Part shown: positions 1-11,560 of the stretch, in pieces
How the letters are laid out: every line of letters begins with the position of its first letter
Position numbering within the stretch: the stretch's first letter is position 1
NCBI GenBank assembly: GCA_044451405.1
Contig: JBIOKB010000025.1
Location: 1 to 12,544, forward strand
Origin: Candidatus Babeliales bacterium
Lineage (GTDB): Bacteria > Babelota > Babeliae > Babelales > Vermiphilaceae
Direction of reading: 5' to 3'
DNA length: 12,544 nt
Made by a program: the position numbers and the translations under genes
The notes under the pieces: generated by a model
Seen by the model: the letters and a program-made list of their open reading frames with translations, nothing else
The model's database searches: none
Told to the model about the DNA's origin: nothing

Positions 1-284
1 GTATGAGTTCTTGCGTGTCTGACCAAATGACTTTTATATGCAAAAACTTCGCCACATGTATCGCATACATGAGCTTTTTCTTTTTTGACGTTAGTTTTTT
101 TATCCCCATCAAATTTTCTTTTAATTCCTCTAGTTACTCTTACAGATTTCTGAGCAGTGGCTGCTTGGGTAGCAGAAGTATCAGATAAAGTAGGTAATTC
201 GCCAATGGCTTCTTCCATTGCACTACTCATGCTCGTTGCACAAATAAGAAGCAATAGGGTTAAATTGGTGAATGTTGTTTTCAT
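1..284 (-). CDS. Secreted C2H2 zinc-finger protein, paralog D (partial; runs off the window at base 1)
   Basis: Not in the ORF track; translated by hand from ATG at 284: MKTTFTNLTLLLLICATSMSSAMEEAIGELPTLSDTSATQAATAQKSVRVTRGIKRKFDGDKKTNVKKEKAHVCDTCGEVFAYKSHLVRHARTH... It has the same signal peptide as the other paralogs, a basic patch and one complete C-x2-C-x12-H-x3-H finger. Its ATG overlaps the TGA of 281..1435 (ATGA). Confidence 0.93.
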   Translation of the reverse strand, partial: MKTTFTNLTLLLLICATSMSSAMEEAIGELPTLSDTSATQAATAQKSVRVTRGIKRKFDGDKKTNVKKEKAHVCDTCGEVFAYKSHLVRHARTH

Positions 285-297
285 AGATTCCCGTCTT
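208..297. repeat. Dispersed direct repeat, copy 1 (EDGNL/stop-start junction plus signal-peptide coding block)
   Basis: gcttcttccatNgcNctactcatgc...ttcatagatt(t/c)ccgtc recurs at about 1359, 2417 and, without the junction, 3256. Confidence 0.85.
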
Positions 298-1435
298 CTC
301 TTGTTTTTTCGGGAGGTTTTACATGTGCATTACCCGCATCAGGCATAGATAATGATTCGCCACCACGTGGGTAAGATATTGCTGGTGCTACTGCTTGCTC
401 ACTAAGTTGTGTTTGTCCTCCGGCTTGTTCTACAGAGCCCTGTGCGAGGGAGGGCGCATGATAATGGGAATGAGAATGATAATGTGTATGCATAGGGGCT
501 GATGAAGCTAACAGCGCAAAGTATAATGAGATTGGTAAAGGAAATTGTGGCATTAGTGTTGCGGCTGCTGGAAAGTATGCATAAGTTGTATGAGCGCTTT
601 GTCCTGTTGTTTGTGCAAGAGAAACTGAGGCTGATGACTTAGGTATATGAGCTCTTCCTATATGGGCAGTTAAATTAGCTTTCTTCCCATAACCTGCACC
701 ACAGGTAGCGCATTTATAAATGCCGCTTTCTTCTGTATGAACTTTTGAATGTTTTTTTAACGAATGTGATTGTGTATATTTTTCTCCGCACCCGGGGTGG
801 ATGCATACGTAAGCTTGTTCTTTAGTATGAGTTTTTATGTGTTGAGTTAAACCGCATTTTTGTGCAAAATCTTTGCCACATTTAGTACACTTGAAGGGTC
901 TTTTTCCGGTATGAGTTCTTACGTGAATTTTCAAACTACCGTTACTTAGAAAATCTTTGCTACATCCAGGATGCTTACATTTGAAAGGTCTTTCTCCAGT
1001 GTGAGTTTTTATATGATATTTTAAGCCGTTTTTAGATGTAAAACCTTTGCCACATTGATCACATGAGTAGCTTTTTTCAGAATCTTTCGTGCTCTCCGTA
1101 GCTTGCCGAGCTTGATTGCCCGGATAAGCAGAGGAGAGTTCTTGTTCAGCTTTTCTTGCAGCAACAATTTTTCTTTTTTTGTAAATGGAGCTCTGTGTAG
1201 ATGTTTCTTCAGAGCGTTCAACATTTCTTTTTTTAGTTCCTATTTGTGCTTGGCTCACTGAGTCAGCTGCGGCAGATATGGGCGCTTGTGCGGCCAAAAT
1301 CATGGCAGTTGTTTGTGGGTTAGCAGGGGCAGTAGATAAAGCGAGTAAGCCTTCAATAGCTTCTTCCATCGCACTACTCATGCTCGTTGCACACAAAAAG
1401 AGTAATAGAGTGAAATTAGTGAATAATGTCTTCAT
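281..1435 (-). CDS. Secreted multi-C2H2 zinc-finger protein, paralog C (5 fingers)
   Basis: Signal peptide MKTLFTNFTLLLFLCATSMSSA; basic motifs TKKRN and YKKRKIV; five C2H2 fingers (about 647-1069) with linkers TGERP, TGKRP, TKEQA, TEESGI; Ala/Pro/His/Gln-rich tail ending EDGNL. Confidence 0.95.
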   Translation of the reverse strand: MKTLFTNFTLLLFLCATSMSSAMEEAIEGLLALSTAPANPQTTAMILAAQAPISAAADSVSQAQIGTKKRNVERSEETSTQSSIYKKRKIVAARKAEQELSSAYPGNQARQATESTKDSEKSYSCDQCGKGFTSKNGLKYHIKTHTGERPFKCKHPGCSKDFLSNGSLKIHVRTHTGKRPFKCTKCGKDFAQKCGLTQHIKTHTKEQAYVCIHPGCGEKYTQSHSLKKHSKVHTEESGIYKCATCGAGYGKKANLTAHIGRAHIPKSSASVSLAQTTGQSAHTTYAYFPAAATLMPQFPLPISLYFALLASSAPMHTHYHSHSHYHAPSLAQGSVEQAGGQTQLSEQAVAPAISYPRGGESLSMPDAGNAHVKPPEKTREDGNL

Positions 1436-1452
1436 AGATTTCCGTCCTCTGG
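1359..1452. repeat. Dispersed direct repeat, copy 2
   Basis: gcttcttccatcgcactactcatgctcgttgcaca...ttcatagatttccgtcctctgg. Confidence 0.85.
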
Positions 1453-2493
1453 AGTCAATGAAGGGCCAAAAAGTACGCTGTTAGAATCAGATTCTGGTAA
1501 AGCGAGCGGCCCAATCAATGGAGTGGCAAATTCCTCCTGAAACGTGTCTCGATTCTCATTAGACATGCTCAATGATAATCCACCAGAATAAGGGATTGGT
1601 AATGGCACCACTGGTAACAGGGCGCTTGATTGTGTTTGAAGATAATGGTCTGTATGCATAGAAGCCGCGGTTAGCGGTGGCGCTTGAGATTCTGATGGCA
1701 CACCTGAATCGCTGCTGCTATGGCTGTGTGTAGCAGGTTCTGGTGTGTGAACACAGTGTTCTGCTAGGGTTAATTTAATTTTTTTCTCGGCATGAGTTTT
1801 TTCGTGTCTGGTTAAATTATATTTAGCTTCAAAGTTTTTGCCGCATATGCTGCATTTGAAAGCTTTTTCGTTATGAATTTTCATATGTCGAATTAGACTA
1901 CTTTCATGGAAAAAATTTTTACCGCATGTTTCACATAAGTAAAGTTGTTTTTCAGTGAAAGACTTTTCTCCAGTATGTGCTCTTATGTGGGTGATCAAGG
2001 TAACTTTATCAGAAAATTTTTTATTGCATCCATAACAGGTGATAAACTTCTTTTTGATATGTGTTCTTATATGTTTAGTTAAAAGTTTTTTGTCTGTAAA
2101 TTCTTGCCCGCATTTTTCACAGGTTAGTTTTGTATGAGTTTTTATATGTTCGGTTAAAATACGTTTGTATGGAAAAGCTTTATCGCATCCAGGATGATCA
2201 CATTTGCAAGGTGTTTCTCCAGTGTGTCTTCTGAAATGGTCGGCCAAATGACTGCTTCTTGAAAAGTTTTTTCCACACTTAGAGCATATATGTTCGCTCG
2301 TGCCCCGTTTTCTTTTAGTTCCCTTTTTTACAGTGGGCGACTCTTGGCTTTCTGAACCAGCGCCAGCTTCGGCTTCGATAGTTGAAGTTGTGTGTGTAGG
2401 CACACTATTTTCAACGGCTTCTTCCATAGCGCTACTCATGCCTGCTGCACACAGAAGAAATAATAGGATGAGATTGGTTAATACTGTCTTCAT
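1432..2493 (-). CDS. Secreted multi-C2H2 zinc-finger protein, paralog B (6 fingers)
   Basis: Signal peptide MKTVLTNLILLFLLCAAGMSSA; basic patch KKGTKRKR; six C2H2 fingers (about 1792-2292), e.g. CSKCGKNFSRSSHLADHFRRH-TGETP; Ser/Pro/acidic tail ending PEDGNL. Confidence 0.95.
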   Translation of the reverse strand: MKTVLTNLILLFLLCAAGMSSAMEEAVENSVPTHTTSTIEAEAGAGSESQESPTVKKGTKRKRGTSEHICSKCGKNFSRSSHLADHFRRHTGETPCKCDHPGCDKAFPYKRILTEHIKTHTKLTCEKCGQEFTDKKLLTKHIRTHIKKKFITCYGCNKKFSDKVTLITHIRAHTGEKSFTEKQLYLCETCGKNFFHESSLIRHMKIHNEKAFKCSICGKNFEAKYNLTRHEKTHAEKKIKLTLAEHCVHTPEPATHSHSSSDSGVPSESQAPPLTAASMHTDHYLQTQSSALLPVVPLPIPYSGGLSLSMSNENRDTFQEEFATPLIGPLALPESDSNSVLFGPSLTPEDGNL

Positions 2494-2510
2494 AGATTTC
2501 CGTCTTCTGG
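2417..2510. repeat. Dispersed direct repeat, copy 3
   Basis: gcttcttccatagcgctactcatgcctgctgcaca...ttcatagatttccgtcttctgg. Confidence 0.85.
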
Positions 2511-3332
2511 ATTCGATGAAGCGCCAAAAAGTATACTGCTAAAATCAGGTTCTGGTAAAGTAAGCGGTGGTTCTGAAGGTGGCTCAGCTAATGGATTGCC
2601 AAATTCATCCTGATTAAACGTATTTCCATTCTCATTAGGCATGCTTAATGAGAATCCACCAGATAAATCAGCAGCTGGTGATGGTTCCACTGCTGGCGGT
2701 AGAGCAAGTGGTTGATAAGAATGGGAATGGGAATGATCTTCTAAAGTAGCTGGTGAAGGTGTGAATTGTGGCATCGGGCCTGCTGGAAGAAATGCATAAG
2801 GTGCATGAGCAGCGGGCTCTGCCGCTTGCGCAGCTAAAGATGGAGTAGGAGTTGTTTGGTTAGGGTTATGAACTCTGCTTATATGCTGAGTTAGTGCTCC
2901 TTGTTTTTTATAACCTATGCCACATATTGTGCATGTGTAACGCCGTTTTCCTGTATGAGCTTTTAAGTGTCTTTGTAAATCACGTGGGTCTGCGTAGCTC
3001 TCGTTACATTGAGCATAGGTACATTTGTATGGTCTTTCTCCAGCATGAGTTCTTTGGTGTCTGGTTAAATGTGCTTTATCGATAAAAGATTTGCCACATC
3101 TAGAAAAAGTACATTTATAAGGTTTATTTTTTTCAGAAGATCTTTTTCTTTTTCGCTCTTTTTTTATAGTGTGTGTTTCACTACCCGCACCGGCTCCGGC
3201 AGATACAGCTAGTTGGGTAGCAGGAGTATCTGATGAAACAAGTAAGCCATTAGAAGCTTCTTCCATAGCGCTACTCATGCTCGTTGCACACAAGAGAAAT
3301 AATAGAGTTAAATTGATTACTCGTGTTTTCAT
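2490..3332 (-). CDS. Secreted multi-C2H2 zinc-finger protein, paralog A (3 fingers; first gene of the operon)
   Basis: Signal peptide MKTRVINLTLLFLLCATSMSSA; basic patch KKERKRKR; three C2H2 fingers (about 2868-3119) with AGERP and TGKRR linkers; Pro/Ala/acidic tail ending PEDGNL; SD-like GAGGGG at 3345-3340. Confidence 0.95.
   Translation of the reverse strand: MKTRVINLTLLFLLCATSMSSAMEEASNGLLVSSDTPATQLAVSAGAGAGSETHTIKKERKRKRSSEKNKPYKCTFSRCGKSFIDKAHLTRHQRTHAGERPYKCTYAQCNESYADPRDLQRHLKAHTGKRRYTCTICGIGYKKQGALTQHISRVHNPNQTTPTPSLAAQAAEPAAHAPYAFLPAGPMPQFTPSPATLEDHSHSHSYQPLALPPAVEPSPAADLSGGFSLSMPNENGNTFNQDEFGNPLAEPPSEPPLTLPEPDFSSILFGASSNPEDGNL
3256..3332. repeat. Dispersed direct repeat, copy 4 (signal-peptide block only)
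   Basis: gcttcttccatagcgctactcatgctcgttgcaca...ttttcat. Confidence 0.85.
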
Positions 3333-3401
3333 ATATTTACCCCTCTTTTTCTGAGGCTTTTATACCTTAAATTTCTTGACTATTGTTTTATTCTATTAGA
3401 A

Positions 3402-3429
3402 ATATTATCAAATATACACCAATTGTCAA
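3402..3429 (-). promoter_or_regulatory. Putative sigma70-type promoter of the zinc-finger operon
   Basis: The minus strand reads TTGACA (3429-3424), a 16-nt spacer ending in TGn, then TAATAT (3407-3402), about 70 nt upstream of the ATG at 3332. Confidence 0.65.
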
Positions 3430-3486
3430 AGGGGTTATTTTATATCCCAATAGTTTATACATTCGTATGGGAAAAGAAATGTCTTG

Positions 3487-3502
3487 CCCTGAGTTCTCAG
3501 GG
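3487..3502. promoter_or_regulatory. Inverted repeat (possible operator or hairpin) in the divergent intergenic region
   Basis: CCCTGAG-TT-CTCAGGG, with overlapping outer arms CTTGCC (3483-3488) and GGCAAG (3506-3511). Confidence 0.35.
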
Positions 3503-3539
3503 AATGGCAAGGTAGGGGGTAGATTGGGTAGGAGAGTCT

Positions 3540-4037
3540 ATGAGGAATAGCGGGTATACACTGGTTGAACTGGTCATTGTTATGTGCTTACTTATGCTGC
3601 TTATAGGGATCACCGTAGGCAATAGAGGTACTTCTAAGATAGGTGCCTGTTCTGCAGTATATACCCTGCACAGTGTTTGTAATTATATGCACATGCGTGC
3701 TCGTGCAACGAACCAAACCCACATACTTAGTTTTGATATAGAGCATAATACCTACTGTTATAATGGCATGCGTGAGCAGTTGCCATCAGGAGTAGTGTTC
3801 GGCGTTCTTGATAGAGCATGCGGGCCCCCTTCATCACCAGTGCGCCCTATAACGCATCCCATTACGGCTGAAAATCAATGTATAACTTTTACGCCCCATG
3901 GTATTATACAGCCTGGTGCAATCTATATAAAAACAACTGATAATAGCTGTATGTATGCGTTAAGTGTGTCAGTTGCACAAGCATCGTTTGTACGGATGTA
4001 TGAGTATCGTCATGGAACATGGATTTTATTAACATAA
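3540..4037 (+). CDS. Prepilin-type N-terminal cleavage/methylation domain protein (FimT/GspH-like minor pilin or pseudopilin)
   Basis: Class III signal MRNSG|YTLVEL followed by a hydrophobic helix; ITFTPHG resembles the C-terminal motif of GspH/FimT; SD AGGAG at 3530-3534. Confidence 0.8.
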   Translation: MRNSGYTLVELVIVMCLLMLLIGITVGNRGTSKIGACSAVYTLHSVCNYMHMRARATNQTHILSFDIEHNTYCYNGMREQLPSGVVFGVLDRACGPPSSPVRPITHPITAENQCITFTPHGIIQPGAIYIKTTDNSCMYALSVSVAQASFVRMYEYRHGTWILLT

Positions 4038-4047
4038 GAAGCTAATC

Positions 4048-6768
4048 ATGATAGTGCGCTCTGCCAGTATTGGATTATTAATTGGATCTCTCATAACACT
4101 GGTGTGCATGCAGTATGATCCATGGGTTAAACAGCGTGTAGGAAAAGCATTTAAAGAGCTGTTTGAAACATCCATTGGATGCCGTATGCACTGCAGTGTG
4201 CAGTCGTTGCATTTGTGGCAACCGGCATTAGTGTTGCAGGATGTTCGCGTAACACCGCGTGATGAACAGGCACCATGGTACTGGACAGCCAAGCGCCTTA
4301 TTGTTTCATGTAACTGGTGGCATGTGTGCTGTTATGGCATTATTGATTTACATGTAGTGTTGGAAGATAGTCATACCTATAGTTCAGTTTCTCATGGCGT
4401 GTTAGCAATTAATGATCATGTTAATACCTTGTTTTTCGGCTCTTCTTCTTCAATTCCGTTATTTACTAAATCAGTGATCTATAAACGAGCGCACCTGCAT
4501 CTTGCTGATACTGATTCAGCAACTGATATGCATGTTACGTGGAATAGTGAATCAAAAAAAATCGATAATCATTTTAAATCTACTCTATATTGTATTGATG
4601 GTTCTTTAGCAGATAAAAATAAAACCTATGTTAGCGATATGCAGGGATCCGTATATCTTGATATGATCTTTGCCAATCAGCAGGTAGAACATAGTATGCG
4701 TGCTGATTGCTCAGTACGTCTTGCCTGTTTACCTCCTGCTCATCAAGAATGCCATATTGATGCAGAGTGGTATGGCAATCAGGGAACGCTACATATTGCC
4801 AATGATGATCATTCACTCCATATTACACCGGTTGCCATTTCCTCTGATAATAACGAATATACTGCCCATATGCAGGGTACCATTCCTCTTAATGTGCTTG
4901 CGTATTACGGGTTTGCGCATCAACATGACGCGTGTGCTGGTACGTGCAGTGTTGCTCTGCACGTAAAAAAAGATGCACATGGTGTTACTGCAGATGGAAC
5001 AGGTACGGTTGATGACGGTGCGTATCATAAAACATCATTAGGTGCCATTACGATGACTGGTAGTGGAGAGCGTGATGCATGGCATGGTTCACTTACTTGG
5101 ATGCCAACGCAGGATGTGCGTGTTGAAGGCGCGTGGCAGTGGCAGCAAGGGCGTGCGCAGATAGAATGTATGTTGCGTGGTGAAACACCGATTTCTATCA
5201 TGAATCAGTGGTATGTACAACCAGGAAGCACCGGATGTACTATCGCCTATGATCATACGGGAATAACCGGATCCTACCACAGTACTCTTCATAACACATA
5301 TCAGGATACAACAGTACAGCTCAACGGACATGGTACGTATAGTGATGGGATAGGAACATGGCATGGTACGGTGAATGATTGTGCCCATGTTGGCTCTCTT
5401 GCATGCACTGATACGGGATATGAAGGATCACTACGGTATAACGATGATAAACAGGCGATAGCTACTTTTGCGCTGCATAACACACAACTTTCAGGGTCTA
5501 TTCATATTCCATGGATTAAAGATATTGTTGTAGCACTGTATGGAGGCGATATACAGGGTGATGGCTCTGTGCGGTGGGATGTAGCAGATTATCAACACAC
5601 TCCATTAACCATAACGTGTACCCTTGATGGTACGCTGCGTATTCCACAAACATATAATGCTATTAATGAAGCACAGGGAATTATAGAGTGGGATTATAAC
5701 GCACGCACGATGCGTATGAAAAACGTGCAGGGTACGTTGTATAAAGGTTCCTTTGCCTGTCATCAAGCAACAGTATTCTATGATGATACGTGGCATCCTT
5801 TTTTTATACAGGCGCCCTGTATTTTTAATGACTGTTTATTAAATGTAAAAAAAGATTTATTTGCGCTTATGTCTGGCCATATGACGTACACGTATCAGGA
5901 TGCGCAAGCCCGTTTAACAGGACTTCTTACTATTGATCATTCACAACTAAAAGAAAATATTTTTTCTGAAGCATTTGCCAATCGTTTTTTACATGCTACT
6001 GGTATGATGATTCCGGTACGGGATAATTCCCTTATGTGTGATGTAACGATAAAAACAAAAGTTCCTACGCACATAAAAACGGCCTTTCTGGATACAACAG
6101 CTGCCATTGATCTTCATGTGACTCATTCACTCGCTTGTCCAGAAGTAGCAGGCACACTATCAATCGGGTCAGGACAATTATCATTTCCCTACAAGCCATT
6201 GTATATTACCCAGGGCTCTTTGTATTGTGTGCCCGGCCGTTTATATGATCCTCTTATTGAATTTACGGCAAAAAACAGTATTAAAAATCATACGATATCT
6301 CTGCATGTTACTGGTTCTCTTTCAAAACCGCATGTGACGCTTGAATCATGGCCGCCCTTAACGCAAGAACAAATTGTTTCGTTATTGTTGGTAGGTTCAT
6401 ATCAAGAATCATTGAATATGGTTATGCCTGCGTTGGTTATGAATAACATCACATCACTGTTATTTGGCGAGAATCACACAACGCATACATCAACGAATAA
6501 ATTCGTATCATTATTAGAGCCATTTAAACGCATCAGGCTGGTGCCTAGTTTTACTGATCAAACAGGCCGTGGCGGGCTACGTGGTGCTATTGAAGTGGAT
6601 GTAAGTGATCGCGTGCACGCAGTTATTCAAAAGAACTTTAGCTTAACGGAAGATACCTATTTTGAATTAGGGTATCTGTTATCAGATGATATTAATGTCC
6701 GCTTGCTGCGTGATGAGCGGCGTGATATGGGGGCAGAAGTTGAAATGCGGTGGAAGTTTGGGAGTTAG
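4048..6768 (+). CDS. tamB: TamB/AsmA-like translocation and assembly module protein (C-terminal DUF490-like domain)
   Basis: N-terminal membrane anchor, long beta-rich body, and C-terminal motifs VTGSLSKPHVTLESWPPLTQEQIVSLLLVG and GAEVEMRWKF typical of TamB/DUF490. Confidence 0.75.
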   Translation: MIVRSASIGLLIGSLITLVCMQYDPWVKQRVGKAFKELFETSIGCRMHCSVQSLHLWQPALVLQDVRVTPRDEQAPWYWTAKRLIVSCNWWHVCCYGIIDLHVVLEDSHTYSSVSHGVLAINDHVNTLFFGSSSSIPLFTKSVIYKRAHLHLADTDSATDMHVTWNSESKKIDNHFKSTLYCIDGSLADKNKTYVSDMQGSVYLDMIFANQQVEHSMRADCSVRLACLPPAHQECHIDAEWYGNQGTLHIANDDHSLHITPVAISSDNNEYTAHMQGTIPLNVLAYYGFAHQHDACAGTCSVALHVKKDAHGVTADGTGTVDDGAYHKTSLGAITMTGSGERDAWHGSLTWMPTQDVRVEGAWQWQQGRAQIECMLRGETPISIMNQWYVQPGSTGCTIAYDHTGITGSYHSTLHNTYQDTTVQLNGHGTYSDGIGTWHGTVNDCAHVGSLACTDTGYEGSLRYNDDKQAIATFALHNTQLSGSIHIPWIKDIVVALYGGDIQGDGSVRWDVADYQHTPLTITCTLDGTLRIPQTYNAINEAQGIIEWDYNARTMRMKNVQGTLYKGSFACHQATVFYDDTWHPFFIQAPCIFNDCLLNVKKDLFALMSGHMTYTYQDAQARLTGLLTIDHSQLKENIFSEAFANRFLHATGMMIPVRDNSLMCDVTIKTKVPTHIKTAFLDTTAAIDLHVTHSLACPEVAGTLSIGSGQLSFPYKPLYITQGSLYCVPGRLYDPLIEFTAKNSIKNHTISLHVTGSLSKPHVTLESWPPLTQEQIVSLLLVGSYQESLNMVMPALVMNNITSLLFGENHTTHTSTNKFVSLLEPFKRIRLVPSFTDQTGRGGLRGAIEVDVSDRVHAVIQKNFSLTEDTYFELGYLLSDDINVRLLRDERRDMGAEVEMRWKFGS

Positions 6769-6798
6769 GAGAAAGACTGGCATAGCCATTCTTTTTAG

Positions 6799-6840
6799 TG
6801 GTATACTGCAGACAATCTAAGAATGTAGATTTCAGGAGGT
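6799..6840 (+). promoter_or_regulatory. Putative extended -10 promoter and RBS of the PLD gene
   Basis: TG-G-TATACT at 6799-6807; AGGAGGT at 6834-6840, 6 nt before the GTG at 6847. Confidence 0.5.
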
Positions 6841-6846
6841 AGATAC

Positions 6847-7599
6847 GTGAAGCATACCCTTTCATATTCCCACGCTCATGGTGCAGTACTAATTTTTAGT
6901 CTACTTTTTTTAAGCATCTGTTTTTTTGATGGCACATGGTTGAGCAATGCGTACAATACCTATCTGCAACCGCATACAACAGCAGTTAATAAAACCCATG
7001 TTGTTATTGGTGCACCTAACAAACAATCATCAGTTGATAAACCAGCGCCGAGTGTATTGCCAGCTCACGCCTATTCACGGGTGCTTTTTTCTCCCGATGA
7101 TGACATCGCACAAGAATTGATTACCTTAATTAATCAAGAAAAAAAGAGTATTCGTGTTGCTATATTCACGTTTACTGATAGTAGGATTGCTCAAGCGCTT
7201 ATTGATGCAGCGCAGCGCAAGGTTGCTGTGGAAGTGATAGCAGATACGTCATATTTACGGGATCAGTACAGTAAAATTCCCGTGTTGCAACAGCATAACA
7301 TAGCAATTTTTACCTATAATCCTCATTACAAAGGCGTACGAACTCATAAAAAAAGAGAATACCTTGGTATCATGCATCATAAATTTATGGTTTTTGAACA
7401 GAACAAAAACAATGAAGAGATAGTTGTTTTTGGTTCATATAATCTTACGCGGTCTGCTAATTTATATAATCAAGAAAATGTAGTGATATCGAATAATCAG
7501 GAAATAATTAAACCATTCGAGCGTCAATTTGAACGACTTAAAAAGCGATGTGACAATTGTTTTGAAGAGTTACCTCAAGGACGTACAGCTATCGCATAA
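6847..7599 (+). CDS. Phospholipase D/Nuc-family protein (single HKD-type motif), N-terminal membrane anchor
   Basis: FSPDD...LINQEKKSIRVAIFTFT...IAQALIDAAQRKVAVEVIAD, MHHKFMVFE, GSYNLT and NQEN form the motif set of Nuc/MitoPLD-like PLD proteins. Confidence 0.88.
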   Translation: MKHTLSYSHAHGAVLIFSLLFLSICFFDGTWLSNAYNTYLQPHTTAVNKTHVVIGAPNKQSSVDKPAPSVLPAHAYSRVLFSPDDDIAQELITLINQEKKSIRVAIFTFTDSRIAQALIDAAQRKVAVEVIADTSYLRDQYSKIPVLQQHNIAIFTYNPHYKGVRTHKKREYLGIMHHKFMVFEQNKNNEEIVVFGSYNLTRSANLYNQENVVISNNQEIIKPFERQFERLKKRCDNCFEELPQGRTAIA

Positions 7600-7695
7600 A
7601 TAATTACGCTTTAATCAAGATCAAGACAAGAGCTAAGGGTGTGGATACAAAAAGAGGCTTCATTACTACAATTCCTTCTTAGCTCGAGCACAAGG

Positions 7696-8712
7696 CTATT
7701 CGTCTTTTGAAAAATTGCAAGAACTTTTAGGGTTTAACGGCATTGATTTAATAAGTTGTGCCATATCAGTGGGCAGCGGACAGGTAAAAGAAAATGGCAT
7801 CCCATCAAAGGTAAATGATAAAGCAGCGGCATGAAGTGCGTGGCGTTTAATGGGTGCTGGTAATGGATTATTATTATACGTAGTATCTCCGAGTAATGGG
7901 TGCCCTATGGCAGCACAATGTACCCTAATTTGGTGGGTGCGGCCCGTTACTGGTGTACATTCAACTAATGCATAGGCATCAAAATAATCTAATACCCGAT
8001 AATGAGTTAATGCATGACGTTCTTTGCCATTCATCATTGCGGCAGGAAAAGAGGCCATTTTATGTTTGTGTACTCGGTTGCGCCCAATGGCAAAATCAAT
8101 GCTGCCCTGCGCCGGAGGGTGTCCTTGTACGAGTGCAAGATAAGTTTTTGAAATAGCCCGCTGTTTAAACAGTTCAGTAAAGTGAGTATGTGCATAGTTA
8201 GTGCGTGCAATAATAAGTAGGCCAGAGGTATCTTTATCAAGGCGATGTACAATACCAGGACGATCAACAGAGCCAACATGGGCAAGGGTTGCCTCATGGT
8301 GTATGAGCCAATCAGCCAATGTTGGTTTTTCGCGTGTTGCAGCGGCATGGTGCATAATAAGATTTGCTGGTTTATTGATAATGAGAAAATGTTCGTGGGT
8401 ATAGATGATTTCTATAGCAAGCCCATGTGCTGTCAGATCAGCAGGAACAACGGCCGGTTTTTGAGGGAATGTGATAGTGATCGTATCCCCTTTCTTTAAT
8501 GGAGAGCTGGGTTTAACCGATTTTTGAGTGTTAATGTGGACGCAGTTTTGCACAATGAGATCTTTTAAAAAACTGCGGGAATAGGCAGTAAATACCTGAG
8601 CTAGGTAGGAATCAAGACGTATCTGTATATGATTGATATCAACAGTCAGGATGTGCGTAGATCCTGGTGTTGCCCGCCCTTCATCGATTCCCTTCACAGT
8701 ATTTCCCCCCAT
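7696..8712 (-). CDS. rluD: RluA-family 23S rRNA pseudouridine synthase with S4 domain (RluD-like)
   Basis: S4-like RLDSYLA...SRSFLKDLI, INKPA, catalytic RPGIVHRLDKDTSG, TGRTHQIRVH, GHPLLGD, ALHA. The exact start codon is uncertain. Confidence 0.9.
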   Translation of the reverse strand: MGGNTVKGIDEGRATPGSTHILTVDINHIQIRLDSYLAQVFTAYSRSFLKDLIVQNCVHINTQKSVKPSSPLKKGDTITITFPQKPAVVPADLTAHGLAIEIIYTHEHFLIINKPANLIMHHAAATREKPTLADWLIHHEATLAHVGSVDRPGIVHRLDKDTSGLLIIARTNYAHTHFTELFKQRAISKTYLALVQGHPPAQGSIDFAIGRNRVHKHKMASFPAAMMNGKERHALTHYRVLDYFDAYALVECTPVTGRTHQIRVHCAAIGHPLLGDTTYNNNPLPAPIKRHALHAAALSFTFDGMPFSFTCPLPTDMAQLIKSMPLNPKSSCNFSKDE

Positions 8713-8744
8713 ACGGTATCTTTAAAAAATAGTCTTTCTTATTA

Positions 8745-8772
8745 AGAGTAGAAACTGATACGTTAAAGTCAA
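8745..8772 (-). promoter_or_regulatory. Putative sigma70-type promoter of rluD
   Basis: Minus strand TTGACT (8772-8767), 16 nt, TACTCT (8750-8745). Confidence 0.45.
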
Positions 8773-8880
8773 ATGGACAATTGAAATAGACAAGGAAGGC
8801 TGAATGCTTTAATCTTGAGGTTCAACCCTCAAAGATTCCGCTGGTTACCCCATAACAACTATCAATCGTAGGAGTTACTT

Positions 8881-10236
8881 ATGAACGCCCCAAAGAATAT
8901 AATAGAAAACGTTCAAGGTCATTTAGACGATGTAATTCAAGGGTCTCCCTCAGGCCAATCATTATGGCGTGATTTTTTAACGGTGCATCCTGCAGACATC
9001 GCCCAGTTTTTTGCAGATAATGATCGGGATGTTTTAAAAACGCTGTTTTTAAAGTTGCCTCTTGAACTTAAACTTCACGTATTTGAAGAACTTTCCGATG
9101 TTTTAAAGGTGTATTGTCTTTCTTTTATGGATGAGGCAGAAAAAGTTGCTGCACTCAATACTCTGTCGGTTGATAAACTCACTGACTTATTTGATTTATT
9201 TTCTGATGAAGAGCTGAAAAAATATCTTAATTTATTACATAGTAATGCACGGCAAGAAGTTATCTCATTGATGAAATTCCACCCAGAATCAGCTGGTGGG
9301 ATTATGGATGTTCAAGTATTAACCTTTATGGATGATTTTACCGTTGAGCGGAGTATCCATCTGTTACAGCGCTTGCGCCCACGGCGTGAAGTTCATCAAC
9401 AAATTTATGTTACCGATAAACATCACAAATTAGTAGGTCATGTACAACTTGAAGATTTGGTGTTGGAAGCCCCTAATAAACGGATTTCTTCATTTATGCA
9501 CCCCAATGAATTTGTTGCTCAAGCTGATGAAGATCGAGAGGTTATTGCACAAAAGATGGTCCACTATGGGTTAATGACGGTGCCGGTAGTAGGCAAAGAG
9601 AATCGCTTTTTGGGTGTTATACCAAGTGAAACGTTGGTGGATGTTCTAGTAGAAGAAGCAAGTGAAGACGTACAAAAAATGGCGGCATTAACGCCCATGA
9701 AATATCCCTACTTTGAAACGTCTTTTTGGCGATTGCTCTGGGAACGGAGCTATATTTTGGTAGCATTGCTTCTTGCTGAATCATTTTCAGGTACCATCGT
9801 TCGTTCATATGAGACTATGCTCGGTGTTTTTTTCTTATCTTTTATTCCGATGCTTATTAGTGCTGGTGGCAATACCAGTAGCCAAACATCAGCGATGGTA
9901 ATCCAAGGTATGGCCTCAGGCGACATTCACTCTGCTAATGTGAGTCGTTTTTTACGGCGAGAATTGTTCATGGCTTTCATGCTCGCAACTATTTTAAGCA
10001 TCGTCGCTTTTATGCGAGTCTATGTAACCCTTGGCTCGCTGTTACATAGCTTTGTAGTAGCAATGGCTCTGGGGGCTATTGTGATGGTTTCTGGCGTGCT
10101 TGGCAGCTGCATTCCGTTTATCCTTAAACAGTTCCGTATAGACCCAGCATTTTCAGCCGGACCATTTTTGGCAACCATCATGGATATTCTTGGTGTGCTT
10201 ATCTATTGTTATCTAATCTCATTTATTTTGGCTTAA
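8881..10236 (+). CDS. mgtE: Magnesium transporter MgtE
   Basis: HPADIA N-domain, PESAGGIM, CBS pair (IYVTD...LVG; VPVV...FLG), transmembrane domain with GGNTSSQT and DPAFSAGPFLATIMDILG; SD AGGAG upstream. Confidence 0.96.
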   Translation: MNAPKNIIENVQGHLDDVIQGSPSGQSLWRDFLTVHPADIAQFFADNDRDVLKTLFLKLPLELKLHVFEELSDVLKVYCLSFMDEAEKVAALNTLSVDKLTDLFDLFSDEELKKYLNLLHSNARQEVISLMKFHPESAGGIMDVQVLTFMDDFTVERSIHLLQRLRPRREVHQQIYVTDKHHKLVGHVQLEDLVLEAPNKRISSFMHPNEFVAQADEDREVIAQKMVHYGLMTVPVVGKENRFLGVIPSETLVDVLVEEASEDVQKMAALTPMKYPYFETSFWRLLWERSYILVALLLAESFSGTIVRSYETMLGVFFLSFIPMLISAGGNTSSQTSAMVIQGMASGDIHSANVSRFLRRELFMAFMLATILSIVAFMRVYVTLGSLLHSFVVAMALGAIVMVSGVLGSCIPFILKQFRIDPAFSAGPFLATIMDILGVLIYCYLISFILA

Positions 10237-10471: not shown

Positions 10472-11560
10472 ATGGATAGTTTCTCTAGGATACTCTATTT
10501 TTCATCGCTTTTAGTTTGTATGACTTTATCTGCCAATGAAACAGCTGATACAGCTCTTTTTGATGCTATTAATACATCTGATTTAGAAGGGGTAAAAGAA
10601 GCATTTAGGAACGGTGCCTCTACTGATGCTAAAGACAAAAATCAATGGAATCCATTTGCAAAAGCACTATTTCGTTATGGCATGTCTAAAGTAGGAAAAA
10701 AGATCAATAAAAATAAAGTTGACGCTAACAAGGCTGTTGTTTACGAGATTTATAATCATATGGAAACAGTTAACCCTGATGATTTTATAACAGCAGCATC
10801 CTTGGGCGGTTTAAGTGATCTAGTAGAAAAAATGATCAATGACGGCATGTCGGTTGATGTAAGAGGCACTCTTGGTCGAACAGCATTGATGACGTTGGTA
10901 CATGGGTATCCTGATTTAGACGATGTAAAATTCCTGGTGGCAAAAGGCGCTGATGTTAATGCAATAGATAAAAGAAAATCTGTACTGGCTGGAGGAAAGA
11001 CTATAGAGAGCAATGTTCTTGATTATGCACTTTCACCGGGAACCTCAGAAGCCTTAAGGGCAGCGATCTATTTGATTGATAAAGGTGCTCGGGTTACGCC
11101 ACAGCACTTTGTTCGTGCTGCCGGTAACCACAATTTTAATCTTGAGTTGGTAAAAAAGATTGATGCAAAAATAAGAAACGTTGATGCTGTTGATAATTCA
11201 GGTTTGACTGCTTTGCGCAAAGCTATCGAGTTTGGAGGAAGCAGTGAAGGCATCAATTACTTATTAGATAAAAAAGCTAATGTAAATGCCATGGTGCAGG
11301 GCGATCCGGATTCAATATTATTTACCGCAATTTTTCAATATTATTACTATAACAATATTGGTCTTACAATCATTGAGAAAATATTGAAAAACGGTGCTCA
11401 GGTTGATGACATGGCTATGGCCCTTGCTCAGGGCGACTTTCCAAAACTTATTAACTTGCTTGGTGCAGAAGAGGGTGCTGTATATGTTAATTATAAACAG
11501 CCAGATCCAGTAAAAAAAGAGCAGGTTTTGAAGTTATTACAAAAGTATAGCCAACAATAA
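10472..11560 (+). CDS. Secreted ankyrin-repeat protein
   Basis: Signal peptide MDSFSRILYFSSLLVCMTLSA; ankyrin motifs GRTALM...VKFLVAKGADVNAID, GLTALRKA...YLLDKKANVNA, ILKNGAQVD; SD-like GGGGG upstream; TATAAT at 10424-10429. Confidence 0.88.
   Translation: MDSFSRILYFSSLLVCMTLSANETADTALFDAINTSDLEGVKEAFRNGASTDAKDKNQWNPFAKALFRYGMSKVGKKINKNKVDANKAVVYEIYNHMETVNPDDFITAASLGGLSDLVEKMINDGMSVDVRGTLGRTALMTLVHGYPDLDDVKFLVAKGADVNAIDKRKSVLAGGKTIESNVLDYALSPGTSEALRAAIYLIDKGARVTPQHFVRAAGNHNFNLELVKKIDAKIRNVDAVDNSGLTALRKAIEFGGSSEGINYLLDKKANVNAMVQGDPDSILFTAIFQYYYYNNIGLTIIEKILKNGAQVDDMAMALAQGDFPKLINLLGAEEGAVYVNYKQPDPVKKEQVLKLLQKYSQQ

Follow-up and report, generated by a model that had tools for sequence, protein, structure and literature searches.

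Analysis of a 12,544-nucleotide stretch of DNA from a Candidatus Babeliales (Dependentiae) genome revealed most of a five-gene tandem array of paralogs, A to E, encoding eukaryote-type Cys2His2 (C2H2) zinc-finger proteins; A–D lie in this stretch, which is the entire contig C25 and is called the window below, and the end of D and all of E lie on contig C68. On balance, we favor the reading that these proteins leave the bacterium to act as effectors in the host nucleus, each paralog with DNA targets of its own, much as transcription activator-like (TAL) effectors do. In the proposed mechanism, a Sec-type signal peptide would take each protein to the periplasm, a secretin system resembling a type II secretion system (T2SS) or type IV pilus (T4P) would release it, and a KRKR-type patch would direct it into the host nucleus. 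There, two to six C2H2 fingers would bind nucleic acid, most likely paralog-specific DNA sites if the canonical recognition mode applies, and a disordered Pro/His-rich tail with two conserved motifs may supply an effector or sorting function. The DNA sites of the paralogs would differ because their base-contacting residues differ. The genome measures 1.02 Mb in 89 contigs, with 40% GC and an estimated completeness of 95.7%, and the nearest named relatives of the MgtE protein encoded in the window belong to Candidatus Babeliales and Candidatus Dependentiae bacteria, a lineage that includes intracellular protist parasites. The genes of the array, with their patches resembling a nuclear localization signal (NLS), are as follows:

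2490..3332, minus strand: gene A, 280 amino acids (aa); leader, NLS-like patch, three C2H2 fingers, disordered tail ending in EDGNL
1432..2493, minus strand: gene B, 353 aa; leader, KRKR patch, six fingers, irregular linkers, tail ending in EDGNL
281..1435, minus strand: gene C, 384 aa; leader, long linker with KKRK, five fingers, His-rich tail ending in EDGNL
3..284, minus strand: 5' part of gene D, 94 aa, one finger, ended by the contig end
L001 2-559, contig C68: remainder of gene D; second finger, tail ending in EDGNL
L001 559-1221, contig C68: gene E, the fifth paralog, directly after D

The left end of contig C25 overlaps contig C68 (locus L001) exactly over 141 nt (window 1-141 equals L001 1-141), and on C68 the rest of D and then E are followed by a convergent gene for a T2SSE/PilB ATPase (Pfam, 5e-142). 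The contig break inside D was probably caused by repeated paralog sequence, so that further paralog copies could be collapsed or missing. At four of the four junctions from A to E, the downstream ATG lies on the upstream stop codon in a 4-nt ATGA overlap, which argues for one translationally coupled operon. A promoter-like site precedes gene A; it is a consensus match only, in a region no richer in promoter-like sites than its shuffles:

3402..3429, minus strand: TTGACA and TAATAT (with TG), separated by 16 nt; located some 70 nt before gene A

A regular-expression scan with translation found 15 C2H2 fingers on the minus strand of the window (3 in A, 6 in B, 5 in C and 1 in D):

2868..3119, minus strand: finger array of A (F1–F3), from motif scan, Pfam and structure model; the array with the GCC-GGC prediction
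1792..2292, minus strand: finger array of B (F1–F6), from motif scan and Pfam
647..1069, minus strand: finger array of C (F1–F5), from motif scan and Pfam
3-65, minus strand: finger of D in the window, from motif scan

The motif matches themselves span 2868-3113 in A, 1792-2286 in B and 647-1063 in C. The coordinates and the helix residues −1 to +6 quoted for these fingers in the first-pass annotation were reproduced for all 15, with complete C..C..H..H ligands, and the 15 helices all differ, as it had claimed. When the second finger of D and the two clean fingers of E are added from contig C68, all 18 helices of clean fingers are still distinct. The ligand spacing C-x2-4-C-x12-H-x3-5-H occurs in 15/15 fingers of the window and 18/18 clean fingers of A–E, and the hydrophobic core is kept (F/Y at c+4 in 18/18, Leu at helix +4 in 17/18); helix +1 is Lys in 11/18. 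The repeats of A–D are C2H2 units of roughly 28–30 residues, and Pfam shows zinc-finger families only in A–D, with whole-protein zf-C2H2 E-values of 1.8e-15 (A), 7.1e-30 (B), 1.6e-20 (C) and 5.1e-6 (D fragment). The corresponding PF00096 scores of 56.8, 102.2, 72.7 and 27.1 bits all exceed the gathering cut-off of 25.2 bits. All 14 PF00096 matches in the genome fall on contig C25 (11) or C68 (3), and open reading frames (ORFs) with at least two motif matches were likewise confined to these contigs, with isolated single motif matches elsewhere; this confinement places the finger array far beyond chance. An AlphaFold2 model of A, a prediction from a 5-row alignment, contains three beta-beta-alpha units in residues 70–158 with block-mean predicted local distance difference test (pLDDT) values of 77–88. 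Residues 70–156 of A align end to end with DNA-bound PDB arrays (ZNF568, Aart, PRDM9, CTCF, YY1, WT1, KLF4 and Zif268), and TFIIIA is also among the PDB matches. Linkers of the T/AGE(K/R/T)P or TGKR type connect the fingers in 2/2 cases in A, 1/5 in B and 2/4 in C, and the others have 4–13 residues or are without Gly/Pro; the regular inter-finger linkers of C have 7–8 residues. Judged by motif and profile, the fingers are ordinary PF00096 members at the domain level.

Helices that all differ are the normal state of polydactyl C2H2 proteins, and the informative part is where the variation falls. Among the 18 fingers of the array, entropy was low at scaffold positions (c+4, 0.85; +4, 0.31; +1, 1.83) and reached 2.8–3.2 at the base-contacting positions −1, +2, +3 and +6. 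Proportions of nonsynonymous (pN) and synonymous (pS) differences were obtained by Nei-Gojobori counts on 91 pairs of the 14 complete fingers in window 1-3400, leaving out the finger of D at the contig end:

contact positions (−1, +2, +3, +6), own pairs: pN 0.674, pS 0.675
other non-structural positions, own pairs: pN 0.466, pS 0.430
structural positions, own pairs: pN 0.04 (0.00 in relatives)

The divergence of the contact set was reached by only 5 of the 715 possible four-position subsets. Corresponding fingers of different paralogs also differ in their contact residues, as seen for the H-x4-H finger that closes the arrays of A, C and D and for A-F2 compared with C-F4. In relatives, 117 finger pairs with at least 80% nucleotide identity from 15 loci gave a contact pN of 0.285 versus 0.127 elsewhere, a value reached by 2/715 subsets, and recently duplicated fingers differed preferentially at −1, +3 and +6. 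Among the 23 pairs at 90–100% identity, contact pN was 0.134 versus a pS of 0.041; this ratio of 3.5 depends on about two synonymous differences, and the pairs are not independent of each other. The excess of variation predicted for base-contacting positions was thus found both in the array and in the duplicates of relatives. The evolving target repertoire that had been proposed is thereby supported in part. Positive selection is suggested by these comparisons for the wider family; at the locus itself, the own pairs are saturated. Within the joint reading that we favor on balance, the family would evolve by tandem duplication, gain and loss of fingers, and fast change of contact residues.

Zinc-finger arrays dock antiparallel on DNA. 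In published tables, the engineered helices DPGHLVR and DCRDLAR are paired with GGC and GCC, respectively (PMC7317221 Table 1, PMC3607563 Table 2). The likeness to these modules that had been noted for A was borne out by the tables: A-F1 (DKAHLTR) shares −1, +3 and +6 with the GGC module, and A-F2 (DPRDLQR) shares −1, +2, +3 and +6 with the GCC module. From these modules and a simple recognition code, paralog A would read the predicted site 5'-(A/N)NG-GCC-GGC-3'. The same code gave far weaker predictions for C and parts of B.

The regions flanking the fingers carry the leader, the NLS-like patch and the tail:

3255..3332, minus strand: leader of A (aa 1-26); a basic n-region, then a hydrophobic core free of charges, then small residues and Met-Glu-Glu
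2416-2493 (B), 1358-1435 (C) and 207-284 (D), minus strand: leaders of the other paralogs, the same module as in A
3141..3164, minus strand: basic K/R cluster of A (aa 57-64), similar to a classical monopartite NLS and 10 residues ahead of finger 1
2493..2864, minus strand: tail of A, Pro/His-rich, predicted disordered (pLDDT <50)
1435-1791 (B) and 284-646 (C), minus strand: tails having SLSMP.E and the C-terminal EDGNL in common with A

The first 26 residues are near-identical across the five paralogs, with n-, h- and c-regions, and the copies of the leader differ by many synonymous substitutions, which argues that it is translated and constrained. By our heuristic, the leader was signal-peptide-like in A, B, C and E (4/4 scored), and that of D aligns with theirs; we accordingly read it as a putative Sec signal peptide, noting that the signal-peptide and NLS calls come from our own heuristics rather than trained predictors. 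A version of the heuristic that scored the best of all Met codons was discarded, with 52% positives among controls. A lipoprotein leader was rejected, as there is no lipobox and E is without Cys there, and so was a Tat leader, as there is no twin arginine. Second and third in-frame Met codons are conserved just past the hydrophobic core of the leader. A small residue followed by Met and Asp, Glu, Lys or Gln occurs after the leader in 23 of the 39 signal-peptide-like finger ORFs of relatives versus 20 of 190 other such ORFs of this genome, and about 10 of those 20 non-finger ORFs read ..AMD, ..AME or near (contigs C4, C11, C16, C22 twice, C30 twice and C62). This second-Met motif may mark a cleavage or maturation site particular to the lineage, or it may serve as an alternative start.

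Between the leader and finger 1, all five paralogs have a variable linker that is predicted to be disordered and ends in a K/R cluster, and a K[KR]x[KR] NLS-like patch was read by eye from the translations in 5/5. The same pattern lies between the leader and the first finger in 21/42 finger ORFs of relatives versus 26/190 signal-peptide-like control ORFs. The tails hold two conserved motifs, one of the SLSMP.E type and the C-terminal EDGNL, which is present in A–D and not in E, and those of A and C contain HSHSHS-type His tracts. The leader and tail motifs had no other occurrence in the genome. In a full-length search of 5.8 billion proteins with A, the leader and tail were matched only by its own paralogs; the other 12 of the 15 matches cover 20–57% of A, in the fingers only, and the best outside the genome are eukaryotic ZNF proteins. 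A profile of the tail searched against 1.84 billion representatives recovered only the five own proteins and one weak match (5e-4), and the ESM Atlas returned generic C2H2 clusters only. By these searches, the finger module alone appears to have relatives outside the genome, and the leader and tail appear to be orphan.

The EDGNL codons may have a double role, since they also precede the start of the following gene:

2490-2510, 1432-1452 and 281-301 of the window, minus strand, and L001 540-562: EDGNL codons, purine-rich and Shine-Dalgarno-like for the next gene

They place GAGGA or GAAGA 10–14 nt ahead of the following ATG and are similar to the non-coding DNA upstream of A, and a ribosome-binding role fits the last gene, E, being without the motif. 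The possibility that EDGNL serves solely as the ribosome-binding site of the next gene was rejected: the four copies contain five nucleotide differences, all of them synonymous, so the peptide also seems to be constrained. Both constraints, on the peptide and on a ribosome-binding element, may act on EDGNL.

As for the export route, the genome encodes two secretins and two T2SSF genes, and VirB4, FHIPEP (SctV/FlhA) and VipB had no match in the 95.7%-complete genome. The T2SS/T4P-like secretin system thus appears, from these profile searches, to be the only outer-membrane export machinery detected. No match to the DSBA and DsbB families was found in the genome, and a VKOR homologue is encoded at G000:C17:12024-12392. 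In the available text on the cultured relative Chromulinavorax, taken here to illustrate the phylum, the bacterial cell lies in the host cytoplasm, and signal peptides are given for 44% of coding sequences and 78% of ankyrin proteins (PMC6561590).

Several observations weigh against export to the host nucleus for sequence-specific DNA reading. With a VKOR homologue present, the finger cysteines may meet an oxidizing periplasm, and proteins released through a T2SS would arrive in the host nucleus only from a cytosolic bacterium or by way of a further translocation step. The leader and NLS calls are heuristic, as stated, and short K/R motifs are frequent in AT-rich genomes. Gene E, which besides two clean fingers has one unit whose knuckle is C-x1-C and a non-canonical Cys-rich stretch, may be decaying, as its short tail without EDGNL also suggests. 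The remaining points concern the fingers: the own pairs are non-independent and saturated in both nonsynonymous and synonymous divergence, with contact pN about equal to pS, and the ratio in relatives has the small basis given above; entropy is 3.13 at c+3 and c+5, as high as at the contact sites; the contact residues of C-F1 and C-F2 are small or neutral, with little predicted base preference; and B has one 4-residue and one 13-residue linker, a poor fit to continuous wrapping around DNA.

Most of these points on the fingers would also fit exported effectors whose fingers bind host RNA or proteins, or bind DNA without useful specificity, the helix differences reflecting relaxed constraint. 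Besides DNA, both RNA and proteins are established ligands of C2H2 fingers, as in TFIIIA, the protein recovered among the PDB matches of A, and the irregular linkers of B, the bland contact residues of C, the near-neutral or saturated contact counts and the variable c+3 and c+5 can all be read in this way. However, TGE(K/R)P-type 7-residue linkers are kept in A, C and part of B, the Arg/His/Asp contact sets of A-F1 and A-F2 match published DNA modules, and the preference of young duplicates in relatives for changes at −1, +3 and +6 is the pattern of DNA-reading arrays. We therefore consider binding of RNA, protein or unspecific DNA an unlikely account, though one to be taken seriously, and prefer paralog-specific DNA targets.

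A use within the bacterium itself was also weighed, either as periplasmic or surface metal-binding proteins or as leaderless isoforms, started at the internal Met (..SSA-M-EE), that regulate the bacterium's own genes. The conserved second and third in-frame Met codons right after the hydrophobic core, the His-rich tails with their HSHSHS-type tracts in A and C, and the position of the array within a pilus/T2SS gene neighborhood would suit such a role. On the other side, GCCGGC shows no enrichment across the genome (74 observed versus 87 expected) and is absent from the window, a mild argument against self-regulation; the leader is kept as protein; and NLS-like patches and TGEKP-type linkers are of no evident use in a bacterium. 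Ros/MucR proteins are single-domain bacterial Cys2His2-type DNA binders of a different fold, with one finger set in a larger globular domain, that act in the cytoplasm as regulators of the bacterium's own genes; in contrast, A–D gave no ROS_MUCR hit among their Pfam matches (E up to 0.01), and the proteins of the array have two to six tandem classical fingers. To our knowledge, no bacterial regulator family is built from polydactyl Krüppel-type arrays. Own use is thus improbable in our estimation, and the reading as exported effectors is retained below.

On the plus strand of the window, the gene order is pilB, the inverted array E-D-C-B-A, a prepilin-type pseudopilin gene and tamB:

3540..4037, plus strand: pseudopilin gene, prepilin-type N_methyl, divergent from gene A
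4048-6768, plus strand: tamB, following the pseudopilin gene

In most relatives, pilB lies directly upstream of the pseudopilin–tamB pair. Among 19 other genomes of the same family with pilB and tamB on one contig, 18 have them 0.5–1.8 kb apart, a spacing obtained by our arithmetic on match tables, with four loci read in detail. In G016 and G218, the gap contains the pseudopilin gene alone; in G009 (L049, G009:C1:754800-760500, 1745-2340) it also holds two small finger-less ORFs of 92 and 101 aa with similar leaders (..SLAMRN and ..SYGMDK), and the pilB/pseudopilin junction may serve more generally as an entry point for genes with such leaders. The exception, G192 from another genus, has an 8.5-kb gap occupied by an inverted array of its own, made up of five finger genes with leaders (L046, G192:C3:219000-232200, 1864-9690) and containing 1, 1, 8, 16 and 5 fingers. 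Two proteins of the G192 array (619 and 987 aa) share an identical start and have repeated modules with long poly-Asn/poly-Asp tracts, a basic patch and 2–4 fingers. Since 18 of the 19 family genomes keep the short gap and G192 has its own array, we take the array to be an insertion specific to its lineage, at a site that has served for this at least two times.

Elsewhere in the window, an ankyrin-repeat gene (10472-11560; Ank_2, 7.7e-15) encodes a hydrophobic N-terminus and belongs to the class of presumed secreted Chromulinavorax effectors, and a PLD-like protein (6847-7599; PLDc_2, 1e-26) with an N-terminal hydrophobic segment may be a secreted nuclease or phospholipase.

The leader-plus-finger architecture recurs across the phylum. 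A search with protein A found finger ORFs in 11/40 related genomes, and PF00096 matches were present in 75 of 230 phylum genomes at least 80% complete, above the cut-off in 55 of the 75, compared with 1/14 controls. At the loci examined, 39 of the 48 finger ORFs of relatives with a complete 5' end were signal-peptide-like by the heuristic, against a comparison rate of 190/639 for the other ORFs of at least 200 aa of this genome. Some Dependentiae genomes have very large tandem finger arrays, as in G052 (L018, G052:C1:234800-237868), with matches over about 234–241 kb of one contig and at least 35 scored; neighboring genes there have near-identical leaders. The related-locus search with protein B, which left out its own genome, returned only four archaeal loci (L012-L015) with single-finger matches, in Nanoarchaeota, Parvarchaeum (ARMAN-4) and Nitrosopumilus contigs of metagenome-assembled genomes (MAGs). 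Among the sequencing runs listed for the locus, none is an RNA run, and two soil-metagenome DNA runs carry small shares, which speaks neither for nor against expression.

This distribution bears on a further alternative, namely that the bacterium picked up these genes recently from a eukaryote (its host) and they now drift without any function, or that the MAG is contaminated with eukaryotic DNA. The eukaryotic ZNF proteins that lead the outside matches of A, in the fingers only, and the degenerate look of E would be in line with it. Against it, the frames of A, B, C and E, and of D across the break, are intact, intron-free and joined by ATGA overlaps; the array is flanked on the same contigs by bacterial genes that are conserved, and its 500-bp bins have a GC of 0.35–0.45, similar to the 0.40 of the genome. 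The zinc ligands and the F/L core are unchanging, as the structural pN values given above indicate, the leader and the EDGNL terminus are preserved through synonymous change, and the same architecture recurs across the phylum. Contamination is already largely refuted, and we hold this alternative as a whole to be very improbable.

A more far-reaching version of the effector reading, which we consider possible but doubtful, is that Dependentiae turned the eukaryotic C2H2 finger into a programmable effector system that would parallel the TAL effectors. It would combine Sec/T2SS export, an NLS, tandem duplication at hot spots such as the pilB–pseudopilin junction and arms-race diversification with protist hosts, each paralog rewiring different host promoters; the leader ending in a small residue, Met and Asp/Glu would then be a signal for export or maturation that is particular to this lineage and found on other effectors as well.

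Comparison with known systems places the array between several of them. It resembles eukaryotic Krüppel-type C2H2 factors (ZNF568, EGR1/Zif268, WT1, KLF4 and CTCF) in PF00096, the C-x2/4-C-x12-H-x3/4-H pattern, the F/L core, the partly TGE(K/R)P-type linkers and the beta-beta-alpha fold, but differs in the bacterial operon, the Sec-type leader, the absence of KRAB, BTB or SCAN domains, the orphan tail and the frequent Lys at +1 (11/18). Under the proposed reading it would be, like the TAL effectors of Xanthomonas and Ralstonia, a bacterial, exported, NLS-bearing, modular DNA reader with diversifying specificity residues; unlike them, it has an unrelated fold without 33–35-aa repeats bearing repeat-variable diresidues, three bases per module rather than one, a Sec leader with no type III secretion system detected (no FHIPEP), and no demonstrated activation domain. 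In the available text of a 2017 account, no effector family other than the TAL effectors was known to act on DNA directly (PMC5570926). MoHTR1 and MoHTR2 of Magnaporthe oryzae are described in the available text as secreted into host cells, where they reprogram host transcription (PMC12488382); they share with the array a signal peptide, a C2H2 finger and nuclear targeting (predicted in the array), but are fungal proteins of the eukaryotic secretory pathway, MoHTR2 having 110 aa and one finger domain, and homology beyond the finger is not expected. The putative zinc-finger proteins of the endosymbiont Cardinium, strains cEper2 and cEhis1 (86 and 203 aa), proposed in the accessible part of the source as candidate regulators of host genes (PMC12560110), are likewise uncharacterized proteins with eukaryote-like fingers in an intracellular bacterium, but they are single small proteins of a member of the Bacteroidota, and that part of the source reports no tandem array, leader, NLS or diversification analysis. 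The ankyrin proteins of Chromulinavorax destructans, in the sections available (PMC6561590), also place a eukaryote-type domain behind a Sec signal, are copy-expanded and are presumed to be host-directed, but have a protein-binding rather than a nucleic-acid-reading repeat; zinc appears in those sections in connection with metal transport only.

The accessible text of a 2021 nucleomodulin review names no bacterial C2H2 effector (PMC7819608). No published account of C2H2 finger proteins in Dependentiae, Babeliales or phylum TM6 was found in full texts, a scope outside which subscription-only papers and supplementary tables fall. Among the papers listed on eukaryotic-like domains of symbionts and amoebae, none contains zf-C2H2, and among those listed on secreted C2H2 proteins of intracellular bacteria, the titles and starts of abstracts gave no account of such proteins, a level at which a domain count in a supplement could be missed. 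The finger domain is known; for the leader-plus-finger effector system itself, no description was found in print.

Sequence-specific DNA-binding bacterial effectors are very few. On the most cautious reading, the locus still records an effector family particular to this lineage, whose leader and tail are orphans and whose insertion site in the genome is a recurrent one. The leader, the NLS-like patch, the operon structure and the phylum-wide distribution make a host-directed repertoire plausible, and fingers of this kind occur in one of every three genomes searched. Finger specificities are in principle predictable, which would offer a handle on host ranges through predicted sites in candidate host genomes. 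If these proteins do bind host DNA, the array would show bacterial domestication of eukaryotic domains and provide a natural library of compact, secretion-compatible finger arrays, and a whole phylum of protist parasites would be steering transcription in their hosts with a type of DNA reader that the hosts themselves use.

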